From Thermodesulfobacteriota bacterium (lineage in GTDB: Bacteria > Desulfobacterota > Desulfobulbia > Desulfobulbales > SURF-16), in NCBI GenBank assembly GCA_039715015.1, contig JBDLIE010000010.1:9514-73513 (forward strand): a DNA stretch of 64,000 bases, written 5' to 3'. The notes under the pieces were generated by a model. It saw nothing but the letters and a program-made list of their open reading frames with translations. It did no database searches and was not told the origin of the DNA. Both the position numbers and the translations under genes were made by a program. Positions 952-8,682 of this stretch are shown piece after piece (positions within the stretch are counted from its first letter, which is position 1; every line of letters starts with the position of its first letter).

Positions 952-2283
952 CTAGTTCTCCTCAACCTCCAACTCGCCCTCTTCAACACTCATTGTTCCA
1001 TCCAGATACCGAGCCTTGCGCCCTTTTCCCTTAAGGACATTATGGCCCATCTCTGCCCTAATGCCGGTGTTGCAGTAGAGGATAAGCTCCTTATGGGGAT
1101 CTAACTCTGCCTGACGCTTACCAAGCTGATCAACAGGGATGTTGACAGCACCGGCAATGGCGCCTTTGGCAAACTCATCAGGGTTTCTCACATCAACCAG
1201 CTGCATTGAACCCGGGGTTTTGCCGGCAACCTTTTCAAACTCAGCCACGGCAATGGTACCGGGTTTTGGCCTGGGCACATAGGTGATGGTGGTTTTGGCA
1301 GCCCCTGTAGCCACAGGGTTGCCGGCCTTCTTCCAGGCCTTAAAGTCCATGGGCAGAATGCGGACAGCTTTGTAGCCCCAGGACACGGCTTGACTGGCAG
1401 CATCTTTACTGTTTGGCCCATAAAAAATGATCGGCGCCTTTTTCCGTTCGGGGAATTTTTCCTTGCTGGCAGCAAGCTTAGCGTATTCAATGCCAACAGC
1501 CCCTTTGATATGACCCTTTTTCACCGTGGCTGCACTGCGCAGATCAATAAGGACATGGGGAATATCCTTGCCAATGGCCATCTTCAGCCAGGCCGGTACC
1601 ACCGTGCCATATTCGTTTTTGCTCCAATCAGGAAAACCACCGGTATAGATGCGGACATTCTCATAACCAAGACTCTTGGTCTTCATGGAGGCGGTGGGAC
1701 TCAGACAGCCGCCCACGCCGTAGAAAACAATGGGGGTGGACTTATCTTTTGGCAGTTTGCCGATGAATTTATCAAAGGCCGGTGCCGGCATCATTCCAGC
1801 GCCGGGGATATGGCCCATCTTATACTTCATGGGTGGCCGGACATCATAGACCTTAACCTTAGGGTCCTTCTGCAACATCTTAAAGGCAGCGCGGTTAAGT
1901 TTCTCATCGTCACTGATGGCGCGCATGATATCAAAGCGGATGATCTCGGTGGCAACCCTCTCGCCCCCCTGTTTCGTATAGTTGATCTGAAAACCCTTCT
2001 TCTTATAATTACGGATATCTTTGAAGTCTTGAACGTACTTGACCCTGGTCTTGTCCGTGAACTTAACCACCTCTTTATGGGTCATAAAATCCATCTGGAT
2101 GGTTTTTGATTTAATGGCGATGTTCTCCAAAAAACCCATCATCACACCTGGTTCCGGCTCATGACACATGCCGCATAGTTTGGCCATGGGCACCTTAGCT
2201 GCTGTTGGTCCCTGGGCAAATACGGCAGGGGCGCATACCATGGCGGCGGCCAGATATGCACTAAAAAATAGCGAGCTCCTCAT
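952..2283 (-). CDS. Exported multi-rhodanese (sulfurtransferase) protein with an N-terminal CxxCH haem-c motif
   Basis: Signal peptide (...PAVFA), CGMCH, three rhodanese repeats (DVRPP..GHIPGA; DLRS..GHIKGA; DVRNP..GAIAGA..YCNTGIRA). Confidence 0.85.
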   Translation of the reverse strand: MRSSLFFSAYLAAAMVCAPAVFAQGPTAAKVPMAKLCGMCHEPEPGVMMGFLENIAIKSKTIQMDFMTHKEVVKFTDKTRVKYVQDFKDIRNYKKKGFQINYTKQGGERVATEIIRFDIMRAISDDEKLNRAAFKMLQKDPKVKVYDVRPPMKYKMGHIPGAGMMPAPAFDKFIGKLPKDKSTPIVFYGVGGCLSPTASMKTKSLGYENVRIYTGGFPDWSKNEYGTVVPAWLKMAIGKDIPHVLIDLRSAATVKKGHIKGAVGIEYAKLAASKEKFPERKKAPIIFYGPNSKDAASQAVSWGYKAVRILPMDFKAWKKAGNPVATGAAKTTITYVPRPKPGTIAVAEFEKVAGKTPGSMQLVDVRNPDEFAKGAIAGAVNIPVDQLGKRQAELDPHKELILYCNTGIRAEMGHNVLKGKGRKARYLDGTMSVEEGELEVEEN

Positions 2284-3517: not shown

Positions 3518-4642
3518 TTACGCAGGTTGTCTTGAGGCGGCAATAAATTTTTTGAATATTAGAAAAAACACGACAGTGACAAAGATGATGCTGAAAAAAT
3601 TCACAGCACCGAGAAAGGCACTGGCAAAGTAGAGCTTGTAAACCATTGTACCCAAAACTTGGGTACCGACAAAGCCTCAGACCATCCCCCATTGAGCAGG
3701 AGAAAACTCGGCAGACAAAAACTCCTTTCGCAAATATTCCCTCAACCAGTATACCGCAAAAACAAACCACACCATTGCCCCTGTGTAAGAGAAGGTCATG
3801 GTCAGAAATGAGGCTGTAGACAGATCAACCCCATAACTCTTGCCGGTAAACATCATGAGCTTAAAAGAGCTGAAACCAAGCAGACACATGGGTGGTACGA
3901 ATAAAAAATAGGCCGGCAGGATATTAACCGTGGGCCTCGCCGCCGATTTCACCTGTTGGTAAACAAGGACAGACATTTTAAAGGCAAAGACAACCAGCCC
4001 CAAAGCCAAAGTGATGGAAACCATAATTGCTGCAGTGCTGGAAATCAGATGATTTTCTGATGCGTTGACCAGGCTCGAACCAAACAACGACACTGCTCCC
4101 AAGGCCAGCACATCAAGCAACCAGCCAAAATTCATGCTCGTATAATCAACCTGGTTTGTTAGAAAAACCTGGATAGTTTTTATTTCCAAGGCCAGCAAAG
4201 GCAGCCACAAAAGGCAAAACATCGTAAATGCCGGGGCCATCAGGGCCTGCATGTTTGCCGTTATCTGCGGCATAAAAAAGCTCAGCGGCCCAAAGAGGAC
4301 AATCATGGTCATCGGCAAGGAGATGAGCGGTGAAAACAGCGATGCACAGGTCAAAGGGTTGTGCAGTATCTCTTTAAAAGAGCTGGGACTGGCCAGCCAC
4401 CTTATGAGCTGGTTACAAAAGATGGCCGTCAGGCTGAGATGAATAACAATAAAGCTCGCCATGACAGCAATCAGCAACCAGGCAATGGCGTACTCCACAC
4501 TCGGGCCGGTCAAGAACGATAGGTCAGACAGGGAAATCTGTCCATCGCTTTTAAAAATATTAACCTTCAGAAAAATATAGGGCATCAGGGCAACACCGGC
4601 TGCTGCCAGTGTTCCTTGAAATTTCAAGGGCGTAAATTTCAT
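3518..4642 (-). CDS. tsoY: Polytopic membrane selenoprotein, TsoY-like (374 aa, Sec322)
   Basis: ORF track stops at TGA 3677-3679 (FSPAQWGMV*). The frame continues GFVGTQVLGTMVYKLYFASAFLGAVNFFSIIFVTVVFFLIFKKFIAASRQPA to TAA 3518-3520. Hairpin GUACCCAA-GUU-UUGGGUAC follows the UGA. Family name from recall. Confidence 0.8.
3648..3666 (-). promoter_or_regulatory. Putative bacterial SECIS of the tsoY-like gene
   Basis: Perfect 8-bp stem with GUU loop at +19..+21 after the UGA. Confidence 0.7.
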
Positions 4643-4668
4643 TTGGCGGTACCTCCTTGCATTGGGGT

Positions 4669-4975
4669 TTACGTTAAAACCTTATCAGCCTCCTTTGCTA
4701 TTTCATACAAATCATCCATCCAACCTATGGAGCATGGCTTGATCCCTCCAGACCGTGGGATTTCATACACACGCCTCAGACGTAAAAATCTCCCTCAAAT
4801 TTGTTGACCTGCTCCATGACATCAAACTCTGCGCTGCCAACCTGGAAAAAGAGTACGCCTTTACCAAGCATGAAGACGCTGATGTCATCCTCCTTTTTAC
4901 GCCAACATTGGCCAGGCGCATGGCATTGAAGATCGACTCACCATCACTTGTGCTGATGATAATAAGCATATTCAT
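4669..4975 (-). pseudogene. DsrE/DsrF-like selenoprotein with a UxxC motif, broken by two 1-nt deletions
   Basis: Restoring one A in the runs at 4894-4898 and 4739-4740 gives 102 aa: MNMLIIISTSDGESIFNAMRLANVGVKKEDDISVFMLGKGV...DFYV-U-GVCMKSHGLEGSKPCSIGWMDDLYEIAKEADKVLT; UGA at 4776-4778. Confidence 0.75.
4742..4761 (-). promoter_or_regulatory. Putative SECIS of the DsrE-like gene
   Basis: AUCCCA-CGGUC-UGGAGGGAU hairpin with GGU at +22..+24. Confidence 0.6.
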
Positions 4976-4993
4976 CGACTCTCCTCCCTGTTG

Positions 4994-5236
4994 TTAAATA
5001 TTCTCTGAAAGAAACGTTTCCAGCTTTTCCTTATCCGTTGCCACGTCCAGCGCTATAAATTCACCGTTTAGGAGTACATTGGTTGCCCTCGCTTTGGCCT
5101 CCTCTGGATCCGTGGTCAGGATCTTTACTTCAAGGCTCTTGCCATATTTATCCTTCATCTCCTGGGCTGCATCCATAGCCCTCTTGCAGGTTACTCATGC
5201 CGGGTTGCCGATGTGAAAAACCGTTAATGTGACCAT
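4994..5236 (-). CDS. tsoX: Thioredoxin-fold selenoprotein with UxxC, TsoX-like (80 aa, Sec14)
   Basis: AAGGAG RBS then MVTLTVFHIGNPA-U-VTCKRAMDAAQE..., in frame with ORF 4994..5176; UGA at 5195-5197; resembles the HSGNPxU motif (family name from recall). Confidence 0.82.
5164..5181 (-). promoter_or_regulatory. Putative SECIS of the tsoX-like gene
   Basis: GGGCU-AUGGAUGC-AGCCC hairpin with loop Gs at +21/+22. Confidence 0.6.
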
Positions 5237-5246
5237 ACCTTCTCCT

Positions 5247-5693
5247 TTACGTGTTTTCTTTGGTGAGCTTTGCCAGCAGGAAAGCGGCGCCGCTTACTGA
5301 GATACCCAGGACTGCTGCAAGGTCCTGGGGGCTGGCATCCATGTTTGATTTCAGGAAGGATTGCACCTCTTCTTCAAGCTCGTCGAGCCAGCTTTCAAAG
5401 AGAATGAGAATGTCCGGGTCGGCAACGGCCATGAGCTGTTTTGACTGGGCAACCTTATGGACCAAACTCTGACACATGCTTGTTGGATCGACACCTTCGT
5501 CCATGCATTCGGAAAGTCAGAGATTAACCATGCTTGAAACCTTATCGGCCCCGGCATCGCCAACCAGTGACACGACAAAATCAAGGCGGGCCTCGTCACT
5601 TATCTGCGAAAGCAGGCTGTTGGCAGCCTTGGCAATTGCCGCTAAGGCCTGCTCTGGCTCCATCCGAGCTATTACCTCTTCAAGTTCAACCAT
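5247..5693 (-). CDS. tsoA: Selenoprotein with LULxxC motif, TsoA-like (148 aa, Sec59)
   Basis: GGAGG RBS, MVELEEVIARMEPEQALAAIAK...SSMVNL-U-LSECMDEGVDPTSMCQ..., joining ORF 5247..5504 in frame; UGA at 5517-5519 (family name from recall). Confidence 0.82.
5484..5503 (-). promoter_or_regulatory. Putative SECIS of the tsoA-like gene
   Basis: UGGA-CGA-AGGUG-UCG-A-UCCA hairpin with GGU at +22..+24. Confidence 0.65.
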
Positions 5694-5711
5694 TTTAAAA
5701 ATCCTCCAGCG

Positions 5712-6026
5712 TCAAAAAGTCGTCCGGCACCGTAACAGATCTTCCCCCAACTCGTTTAGCTGTTCGAGTATGGTGAGGATACGGTCATCGGTTAGCTCAT
5801 AGTATACGAAAGGCCCTCGGCGCTCGACGCTTACCAGCAGAGACCTTTTCAGCTCTTTTAGATGGTGGGAGACAAGGGGCTGGGAAAGGTTGAGTTCCTC
5901 CACAATGGTGGAGACAGACTTCTTCTCTTTGACACTAAGCAGTATGCGCAACCTATTTTCATCGGCCAGGCATTTAGCCAAAAAAGCCTGGATATGCAGA
6001 TTAACCCCATCTCTGTTTTTTGCCAT
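5712..6026 (-). CDS. ArsR/SmtB-family transcriptional repressor (TsoR-like)
   Basis: KCLADENRLRIL...SQPLVSHHLKELK...GPFVYY winged-HTH signature. Confidence 0.9.
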   Translation of the reverse strand: MAKNRDGVNLHIQAFLAKCLADENRLRILLSVKEKKSVSTIVEELNLSQPLVSHHLKELKRSLLVSVERRGPFVYYELTDDRILTILEQLNELGEDLLRCRTTF

Positions 6027-6323: not shown

Positions 6324-6401
<78 letters not shown>

Positions 6402-6556: not shown

Positions 6557-7297
6557 CTATTTATTAACTACCATGGCCAGAGTCGCCACCTCCACCGAGG
6601 CTGCCCCTGCCTTTTTCAAGGTCTTAGCACATTCATTCACCGTGGTGCCGGTGGTAAAGACGTCATCCACCAGGCAGATTTTTTTACCCGCCACCGTCTC
6701 TGGTTTGGGTAAGGCAAAGGCGCCAACAACATTTTTGCGACGCTCATCACCCTTGAGACCGGTCTGAGGTTGGGTGGGGCGGCTGCGGATAAGGTAATTA
6801 CCTATCTTTTCTTTTTGTTCCGGAAAGAGAACCTTGGCCAGCAACAACGATTGGTTGAAGCCGCGGCTTCGCAGCTTATCAAGGTGAAGAGGGACAGGAA
6901 CGATGATATCCGGGGTGTTAAGTCCGTTTAGGGACGAGTTGCCGGCCAGTGTTGCCATGGTGCGCAGCCCTGTTTTTTTACCAGCAAATTTGAGGCTGTG
7001 AATAAGGGTGCCAATCTCCTCATTATAACAAAAGACGGAGCGGGCCCGATCAAAGGCATATTTCTTCTCCAGACAAAGACCGCAGATATGGGAACCGCCG
7101 CCGCTTTTGGCATACATAACACCGCAGACCGGGCAATGGGGTGTTGTCATCGAATCTAATTTAGGCAGGCAGGTGGGGCAGATTTCTATTTTGCCAGCCC
7201 AGGGAAGCGGGGTGGCACAACAGAGGCAATGGGGAGGGAAGCAGAGATCGGCCAGGGCTTGGAACCAGTTTTTCAGGGGCATAACCGTTGTTGGCAA
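6557..7297 (-). CDS. comF: ComF family protein (double Zn-ribbon plus phosphoribosyltransferase domain)
   Basis: CxxC pairs, VPVPLH..RGFNQS, LVDDVFTTGTT. Confidence 0.88.
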   Translation of the reverse strand: MPTTVMPLKNWFQALADLCFPPHCLCCATPLPWAGKIEICPTCLPKLDSMTTPHCPVCGVMYAKSGGGSHICGLCLEKKYAFDRARSVFCYNEEIGTLIHSLKFAGKKTGLRTMATLAGNSSLNGLNTPDIIVPVPLHLDKLRSRGFNQSLLLAKVLFPEQKEKIGNYLIRSRPTQPQTGLKGDERRKNVVGAFALPKPETVAGKKICLVDDVFTTGTTVNECAKTLKKAGAASVEVATLAMVVNK

Positions 7298-7391
7298 AAT
7301 AGATTAAGAGCTGTATCTTAGATACTCTTTAGATCAACGTCATCCAAGTGGAAAAAGGGTGGCCCAATTACTCTCTTTAAAACCGTTTTCC

Positions 7392-7553
7392 ATGAAATCA
7401 ATTATTTTTCTCTTTATATCAGTCCTGGTAGGCATTGTTACCTTTGTGGTTATCCAAAAAAAATCAGAGGACGGCTGCATTCCCTGACTGCTTATCTATG
7501 GTTCCCTCGGTGCGGGAGCAATCACCTACTACCTGCTGACCCTGTTCTTTTAA
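7392..7553 (+). CDS. Putative 53-aa membrane selenoprotein with a CxxU motif (Sec32); not in the ORF track
   Basis: MKSIIFLFISVLVGIVTFVVIQKKSEDGCIP-U-LLIYGSLGAGAITYYLLTLFF; UGA at 7485-7487; two hydrophobic segments; SECIS-like hairpin; no clear SD sequence. Confidence 0.72.
7501..7519 (+). promoter_or_regulatory. Putative SECIS of the CxxU microprotein
   Basis: GUUCCC-UC-GGU-GC-GGGAGC hairpin with GGU at +22..+24. Confidence 0.68.
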
Positions 7554-7578: not shown

Positions 7579-8682
7579 ATGCTTGTCCAGTCAAAACCAT
7601 ATAGAACCATCTGGCCCCATCCCGACACCATTGGTGTGGTGCAGATCATTGACCAGCGCCTTCTTCCCCATCAGTTTGTCATTGTTGATTTACTTAGTGT
7701 GGCAGACTTTGCCATGGCAATCAAGGACATGTACGTGCGCGGCGCCGGACTCATCGGCGCCACGGCCGGTTTTGGCATGTACGCCGCTGCCCTTCATAGC
7801 CGTGATGACCATTTTGACCAGGATATGCAGGGTTTTGCCGACACCCTGGTAGCCACCAGGCCCACGGCCAAAAACCTGGTCTGGGCTGTGGAACGGCAGC
7901 TTGCCGCCATTAAAGATCTGCCGACTCCTGCCGCAAAAAGGGAAAAAACATTTGAGGTGGCCTGCCAGATCGCTGATGAGGATGCCCAGTTCTGTAAACA
8001 GATCGGCGAGCATGGCGTCGAGATCATCCGCGAGATCAGCAAACGCAAAAACGGCGCACCGGTGAACATCCTCACCCATTGCAATGCCGGCTGGCTGGCC
8101 TTTGTTGATTACGGCTCTGCCACCGCCCCCATCTACGAGGCCCAGGCCCAGGGTATTGATGTCCATGTCTGGGTGGATGAGACCAGGCCCTGGCTCCAGG
8201 GAGCACGACTCACCACCTGGGAGCTCAAAGAGCAGGGCGTCTCCCATACCCTGATTGCTGATAATACCGGCGGCCATCTCATGCAGCATGGCATGGTGGA
8301 TCTTGTCATTGTCGGTACGGACCGCACCACCTATTGCGGTGATGTGGCTAATAAGATCGGTACCTATCTCAAGGCCCTGGCTGCCCATGATAACGATGTG
8401 CCCTTTTATGTGGCCCTGCCCTCATCCACCTTTGACTGGCAGATCTGTGACGGTGTGGACGGCATTCCCATTGAGGAGCGCTCCGGCGATGAGGTTAACC
8501 TGGTGAGCGGCCAAAGCGAATCGGGCCTGACTACCGTGGCCATCACCCCGGCAGATACCAAGGCAGCCAACTATAGCTTTGATGTCACCCCGGCCCGCCT
8601 GGTAAGCGGCCTTATCACCGAGCGTGGTATCACCAAGGCCGATAAGGAGAGTATTCTCGCTCTCTATCCAGAAAAGAAATAA
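7579..8682 (+). CDS. mtnA: S-methyl-5-thioribose-1-phosphate isomerase
   Basis: VRGAGLIG, TRPTA, ILTHCNAG, ETRPWLQGARLT, NKIGTY, FDVTP. Confidence 0.95.
   Translation: MLVQSKPYRTIWPHPDTIGVVQIIDQRLLPHQFVIVDLLSVADFAMAIKDMYVRGAGLIGATAGFGMYAAALHSRDDHFDQDMQGFADTLVATRPTAKNLVWAVERQLAAIKDLPTPAAKREKTFEVACQIADEDAQFCKQIGEHGVEIIREISKRKNGAPVNILTHCNAGWLAFVDYGSATAPIYEAQAQGIDVHVWVDETRPWLQGARLTTWELKEQGVSHTLIADNTGGHLMQHGMVDLVIVGTDRTTYCGDVANKIGTYLKALAAHDNDVPFYVALPSSTFDWQICDGVDGIPIEERSGDEVNLVSGQSESGLTTVAITPADTKAANYSFDVTPARLVSGLITERGITKADKESILALYPEKK

Follow-up and report, generated by a model that had tools for sequence, protein, structure and literature searches.

A gene for a membrane selenoprotein of only 53 residues was found at 7392..7553 on the forward strand of the window, the whole 64,000-nt stretch of DNA analyzed here. 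The gene represents a family of very small membrane selenoproteins that has apparently not been described before, a conclusion that is well supported. The architecture and the family are new, and the recoding follows a known mechanism. Taken jointly and as read from the sequences, the gene, its recoding signal, the Sec/Cys pairing, the hairpin fold and the distribution are almost certainly as described below.

Reading frame and its continuation past the UGA

The ORF ran from an ATG at 7392 to a TAA at 7551-7553 (53 codons). A single in-frame TGA at 7485-7487 specifies residue 32 and completes the motif C29-I-P-U32, so that the product reads helix, basic loop, C-I-P-U, helix. Upstream lay a divergent comF-like gene (6557..7297, reverse strand) with DZR_2 and Pribosyltran domains and a TIGR00201 match below cut-off. 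Downstream, after 25 nt, came the ATG of mtnA (7579..8682, forward strand; TIGR00512 above cut-off), which encodes methylthioribose-1-phosphate isomerase. The initial annotation had proposed a 53-residue ORF with CIPU between two transmembrane helices, lying in the comF-mtnA gap and ending 25 bp before mtnA; the translation, the hydrophobic flanks, the helices of an AlphaFold2 model and the measured distance all agreed with this. It had also remarked on the absence of a clear Shine-Dalgarno sequence. No match was indeed seen ahead of the host ORF (+1.2 kcal/mol), though one was present in 112/155 homologs, compared with 29/154 control windows. The gap to comF contained one weak match to a sigma-70-like promoter (7291..7319, forward strand), which was not above chance (0.8 expected in shuffles).

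Besides the translation, the gene call was supported by its homologs and by a coding signature before and after the UGA. A total of 168 loci yielded 156 distinct and complete copies, after 12 had been dropped as duplicates or as cut at contig ends. The Sec codon was TGA in 155 of the 156 and TGC in the remaining one; Cys was the only substitute, and TAA or TAG never occurred. Cys29 (7476..7478, forward strand) was present in all 156 counted copies and absent in one further copy (L195).

The 57 nt after the UGA contained no in-frame stop in any of the 156 copies, compared with 129 and 33 copies with stops in the other two frames, a count to be read with the caveat that profile detection favors open frames. 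The post-UGA frame was open for 19-32 codons in every copy, and the stop came exactly 21 codons later in 115. Within the genus, pN/pS was 0.35 before the UGA, 0.09 in the codons overlapping the SECIS, 0.20 past the SECIS and 0.17 over the whole post-UGA part (six genomes, 15 non-independent pairs). Among the profile-found Sec copies, Y36 was conserved in 50/50, G40 in 48/50 and G42 in 47/50. The conservation of these residues may be due to the overlapping SECIS rather than to protein function.

Recoding signal and host machinery

A bacterial SECIS hairpin was located at 7500..7519 (forward strand; +13..+32 past the UGA), over the codons G-S-L-G-A-G-A, with GG at 7509-7510. In the host, the GGU at +22..+24 lay within a hairpin at +14..+32 of -8.9 kcal/mol, which on its own was no stabler than shuffles (z -0.09). 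The case for the hairpin rests, for this reason, on its conservation, as seen in folds, covariation and pairing relative to shuffles.

Over 190 pairs of third codon positions, 15-30 and 21-24 covaried most strongly, and both span the hairpin (0.45 bits; mean 0.08, sd 0.065). Among all pairs more than 3 apart, 19-26 ranked top. Across the family, the stretch +12..+34 had a mean folding energy of -9.66 kcal/mol, compared with -1.71 downstream, and was stabler than synonymous recodings in 94% of the copies. In the hairpin pairing, 87.8% of cells were paired in 35 of the 155 sequences, a level reached by 0/500 shuffles and compared with 33-58% for slid structures, with the caveat that the structure was derived from the sequences tested and that related copies are not independent. 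The compensatory changes fell at synonymous sites.

The SECIS model in the available parts of PMC13188914 places the loop 16-37 nt past the UGA, with a G within the first two loop positions and an energy of -7.5 kcal/mol or lower. The host (-8.9) and the family mean (-9.66) agreed with this model, and the pair 20-25, present in 150/155 sequences, closes the loop with G second. The lowest-energy fold of the host had a 7-nt loop with G third; addition of the C21-G25 pair gave the N-GG-N-N pattern of the model. An Rfam search returned one match, at chance level.

When 6000 TGA triplets of the host were sampled, just 4 had the SECIS characteristics of the family, which were defined after the family had been seen. 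A looser scan for SECIS plus motif returned 77 candidates, most of them implausible, and was therefore no guide to a partner. With an unexceptional hairpin and so many candidates from the loose scan, a single genome proves little by itself.

The host genome possessed selA (618 bits) and selB (373 bits), both above cut-off, and tRNA-SeC(tca). The host thus had SelA, SelB and tRNA-Sec, and the conserved in-frame UGA aligned with Cys elsewhere, as is looked for in a bacterial selenoprotein. Absence of the gene from relatives, loss of the frame past the UGA and lack of a conserved hairpin had been set beforehand as grounds for rejecting the proposal. All three were examined and none refuted it: the gene was found in 270/301 genomes of the order, the frame was maintained (no stops within 57 nt in 156 copies; pN/pS 0.20 past the SECIS), and the hairpin was conserved with compensatory changes at synonymous sites. 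These results supported the bacterial selenoprotein interpretation.

Other selenoproteins are encoded in the same window. On the reverse strand, 3518-6026 carries an ArsR-type regulator followed by TsoA (5247-5693), TsoX (4994-5236) and TsoY (3518-4642), a known cluster. Each Tso gene contained one in-frame TGA and scored above its NCBIfam cut-off (NF045695, NF045809 and NF047643). A multi-rhodanese protein of 443 residues with an N-terminal CxxCH motif lies downstream of the cluster (952-2283, reverse strand), and a tRNA-Pro(TGG) between comF and the cluster (6324-6401, reverse strand) may mark an integration boundary. The Tso genes, 1.7-4 kb away, share the recoding machinery of the host with the small gene, but their sequences are unrelated, they lie on the opposite strand past comF and tRNA-Pro, and the small gene has other neighbors elsewhere. 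The GGU had been described as placed exactly as in these neighboring selenoprotein genes. This held for TsoA (+22..+24), but in TsoX and TsoY the positions agreed only roughly, with the G pairs shifted by 1 to 2 nt.

Distribution, variant forms and genomic context

A search with the single protein gave matches in 32/41 related genomes, with one TGA in 31 of the 32 best matches. A profile of 19 sequences extended this to 270/301 genomes of the order (about 90%), 266 with a single match and 4 with two. One TGA was present in 150/150 among the matches listed for the order, to which 124 further matches are to be added; two of the second matches were inspected and proved to be fragments. At the level of the phylum, two profiles matched 15 and 14 of 401 genomes, and the only true matches beyond the order were those in G341 and G408. 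The class to which G341 belongs gave matches in 12/61 genomes, 11 of which held up. The weak matches in G351, G560 and G712 and the second one in G709 were discarded, as they lacked either the motif or the hairpin.

A DNA pattern scan of the species genomes returned at least 120 stretches, of which 117 were true, all with TGA though the pattern allowed any TGN; three (L089, L094 and L100) scored below 14 bits and were dropped. The pattern fixed SECIS bases and was thus blind to Cys forms in which these had been lost.

Named holders included Desulfobulbus, Desulfopila, Desulforhopalus, Desulfocapsa, Desulfurivibrio dismutans, Ca. Electrothrix gigas, Desulfonatronovibrio and Pseudodesulfovibrio, from which we inferred the order to be Desulfobulbales and the second class Desulfovibrionia. 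By these matches, the gene is near-core in Desulfobulbales, inherited there as a single copy, and patchy in Desulfovibrionales. It is also dispensable. Twenty negative genomes were searched again with a wider profile, giving no match in 18 and fragments only in 2; selA was detected in all but one of these 20, in one case as a partial match.

Several copies deviated from the common pattern. In L196 (G037) and L197 (G123), just a short stretch similar to the motif region was left, the genomes otherwise lacking the gene; both may be pseudogenes. The TGA form was intact in L204, from a genome (G243; 91% complete) in which selB was not found; in G149, of the same genus, searches for selA, selB and the selenoprotein gene gave nothing. 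These two genomes could reflect assembly gaps or ongoing loss of Sec. L142, a true copy, was on a contig labeled uncultured Gammaproteobacteria, which may reflect mislabeling, misbinning or transfer. A longer loop was seen in L157, L170, L174, L192, L194 and L203-L205 (from Ca. Electrothrix records and from similar genomes), several of those from the similar genomes having Arg two residues past Sec.

Cys forms were very rare. Both genomes of one genus (G027 and G042) had CxxC, together with Asn in place of the Tyr at +4 and alanines in place of the glycines. Both retained selA and tRNA-Sec. The hairpin was lost in G027 (-2.6 kcal/mol), and that of G042 still folded (-8.7). Beyond the single TGC copy among the 156, Cys forms comprised L190, P0002, P0014, P0015 and P0021. 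A protein cluster of Oleidesulfovibrio alaskensis contained Cys forms (WP_273193236.1, "hypothetical protein") alongside forms cut or read through at that position. CxxW forms (P0003, P0004, P0006, P0013, P0016 and P0022), which were examined as protein records, were taken as gene-calling artifacts in which TGA was translated as W, since several of them also have an added C-terminal W at the stop position of relatives, and a form truncated there belongs to the same cluster. A search of plasmids with the Cys form gave no match, and one of the ESM Atlas gave nothing at 0.9 or above.

Among the 156 copies, 84 were downstream of typA, 38 ahead of mtnA and 5 convergent with mazG, and 29 had other or too-short flanks. 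A functional link to mtnA was rejected on these counts. In the host, mtnA is probably co-transcribed with the selenoprotein gene, yet it is no fixed partner; the association is purely positional and mtnA is no part of the function. The neighborhoods examined suggested no partner. The retention of one copy through these changes of neighbors fits a housekeeping role.

Novelty, topology and candidate function

None of the 34 members compared with Pfam and NCBIfam 20.0 reached a cut-off in the matches shown, and the same library recognized TsoA, TsoX and TsoY. A profile search of 1.84 billion representative proteins yielded 11. Seven were truncations, six of them 31 residues long and the seventh carrying a long N-terminal extension; of the other four, one was a Cys form and three had W at the Sec position. 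The family has been overlooked because gene callers take the selenocysteine codon for a stop; these truncations bear out the earlier expectation that standard gene callers would not see it. A PDB sequence search gave no match at E up to 10, no longer, fused form was seen among 8000 candidates (weak evidence), and no RNA holder of the gene was listed.

In its available parts, including Table 1, PMC13188914 catalogs 119 families of prokaryotic selenoproteins, and none of them fits; the initial annotation had likewise not recognized the family. The catalogued CxxU selenoproteins (SELENOW-like, GrdA, AhpD-like and the CC/Se family; Table 1) share with it an in-frame UGA, a downstream SECIS, CxxU and Cys counterparts. 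They differ in that here no Pfam or NCBIfam match is above cut-off, a membrane hairpin of 53 residues makes up the entire protein and Cys forms occur only very rarely. In the available text parts and four supplements of PMC12013277, none of five family motifs was present. That paper describes deep-Sep, which, by its own statement there, may miss families without Cys homologs; it scanned three Desulfobulbia genomes, which may or may not carry the gene, and the parts available do not report the family. This blind spot suggests that more short, almost-always-Sec families may stay hidden. Searches of the open-access literature showed no description of the family; the families of Haft and Tolstoy (2025) were covered through a review table and NCBIfam.

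AlphaFold2 predicted a helical hairpin (mean pLDDT 79, pTM 0.50), the motif falling where the second helix begins. Helix 1 (residues 2-24; 7395..7463, forward strand) is hydrophobic, with a family mean hydropathy of 2.51, and ends in the basic KK of the loop. Helix 2 (residues 31-52; 7482..7547, forward strand) carries U32 in its first turn, followed by the conserved Y36 and G-x-G. Fold searches returned generic helical hairpins (Foldseek best E 4.3; VIA best Z 8.2). Lys and Arg averaged 2.29 in the loop, compared with 0.59 and 0.74 at the ends, and the loop exceeded both ends together in 105/156 copies and equaled them in 50. From this concentration of charge, the positive-inside rule places the loop on the cytoplasmic side, where it probably lies. 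In eukaryotes, SELENOK and SELENOS are also small, membrane-anchored selenoproteins; they are single-pass, with a cytoplasm-facing Sec near the C-terminus. The present protein resembles them in size, anchoring and the predicted cytoplasmic Sec, but here Sec sits between two helices in CxxU.

Following the standard mechanism, SelB would bind the hairpin and Sec would be inserted at codon 32. The product would form a helical hairpin in the inner membrane, its basic loop facing the cytoplasm and its two ends outside, and C29-x-P-U32 would cap the start of helix 2. In CxxC redox centers such as those of thioredoxin and DsbB, the motif caps the start of a helix with similar geometry. We favor C-x-P-U as a putative membrane-tethered, cytoplasm-facing Cys/Sec redox pair, which, on the inner side of the membrane, would most likely alternate between the selenolate/thiol and selenenylsulfide states. 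The protein would then be a small redox relay, or else an accessory subunit, working with a partner that is either membrane-bound or membrane-soluble and belongs to the core sulfur or energy metabolism of these bacteria. This reading is supported by the exclusivity of TGA and Cys at the site, the Cys forms, the covarying SECIS, the loop charge, the motif in helix 2 and the single-copy retention. It is consistent with PMC13188914, which, in the parts available, regards uncharacterized CxxU selenoproteins as mostly likely redox proteins. Against it stand L195, which keeps Sec without the first Cys and fits poorly with an obligatory Cys-Sec bond, the genomes that lack the gene despite having selA, and the neighborhoods that suggested no partner.

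Other explanations were weighed against these data. That the UGA is a plain stop, ending a 31-residue single-helix peptide before a conserved non-coding hairpin, is hardly credible. The predominance of 31-residue forms in databases, the unremarkable hairpin of the host alone and the TGA copy of G243 would suit it, but TAA and TAG were never seen in 156 copies, the frame stayed open for 19-32 codons throughout with pN/pS 0.20 past the hairpin, and the Cys forms continue straight through the site. A selenium-sensing leader ORF, in which read-through controls a downstream gene (here mtnA) and the peptide is incidental, is very improbable. The 25 nt to mtnA, its presence after 38/156 copies and the rarity of UGA replacement agree with it. 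On the other hand, typA precedes 84/156 copies and mazG is convergent in 5; many typA loci offer nothing to regulate, the next long ORF being encoded on the other strand. In addition, mtnA still follows Cys forms, and the two hydrophobic helices, Cys29 and purifying selection past the SECIS are all kept.

Marginally less improbable is a split or minimal DsbB homolog, whose helix 1, CxxC and helix 2 would be the counterpart of the N-terminal half of DsbB, with quinone as the partner in electron exchange. The Cys form P0021 matched positions 15-47 of the DsbB model NF002552 (E 4.7e-4) and L018 matched at E 0.009, but such a match occurred in just 2/34 members, far under the 138-bit cut-off. HHalign against a shallow profile of five DsbB proteins gave a probability of 0.3%, and the family profile scored the same five at 1.6 bits or less. 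P40, C41, C44 and R48 are invariant in these five, whereas the family has D, N or S before Cys and Tyr at +4. The DsbB loop is on the side opposite to the cytoplasm, whereas the loop here is predicted to be cytoplasmic. Homology was thus unsupported, the profile comparison being negative, Pro and Arg+4 missing and the helices two, not four. DsbB/BdbC (PF02600), which shares the order helix, short loop and CxxC at the start of the next helix, but has a second Cys pair that is absent here, is at most an analog. The BdbC/DsbB-like gene of the host, its own member of the DsbB family, lies elsewhere, in an operon with a DsbA-like and a TlpA-like gene (contig C16, L187, 269-1914). DsbB was found in just 5/201 genomes of the phylum, and a search for VKOR in the host found none. 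The strongest competitor, which we still judge unlikely, accepts the selenoprotein and has its Cys/Sec pair bind a soft metal or metalloid (Hg, Cu, Ag, As) or ligate a membrane cofactor, with no redox cycling. CxxU can chelate soft metals, L195 keeps Sec without the first Cys, and a Sec-containing MerT-like membrane transporter with C/SxxU is catalogued in the available parts of PMC13188914. Unlike that transporter, the small selenoprotein has no PF02411 match (34 members together matched 21 families at E up to 1, and MerT was not one of them), and no mer-type neighbors were seen. The labeled contexts showed housekeeping neighbors, not resistance operons, the Cys form had no plasmid match, and near-universal, vertical single-copy retention is unlike that of mobile resistance genes.

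Returning to the redox pair, a bolder version, to which we give less credence than to metal binding, is a minimal selenoenzyme joining the membrane quinone or sulfane-sulfur pool to cytoplasmic thiols. If true, the selenoenzyme would act as an inverted, Sec-based, two-helix counterpart of DsbB, and the family would be an unrecognized core part of sulfur and electron-transfer metabolism in Desulfobulbales, cable bacteria included.

The finding adds a family that is missing from the catalog of 119 prokaryotic selenoprotein families (in its available parts) and from NCBIfam 20.0. It is no rarity, being present in about 90% of the genomes of an order that includes sulfate reducers, sulfur disproportionators and cable bacteria; the main text of a 2026 survey of cable-bacteria genomes (PMC13047784), as far as available, contains no word starting with "selen". 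The size of 53 residues and the natural Sec and Cys alleles in O. alaskensis make the protein directly testable.
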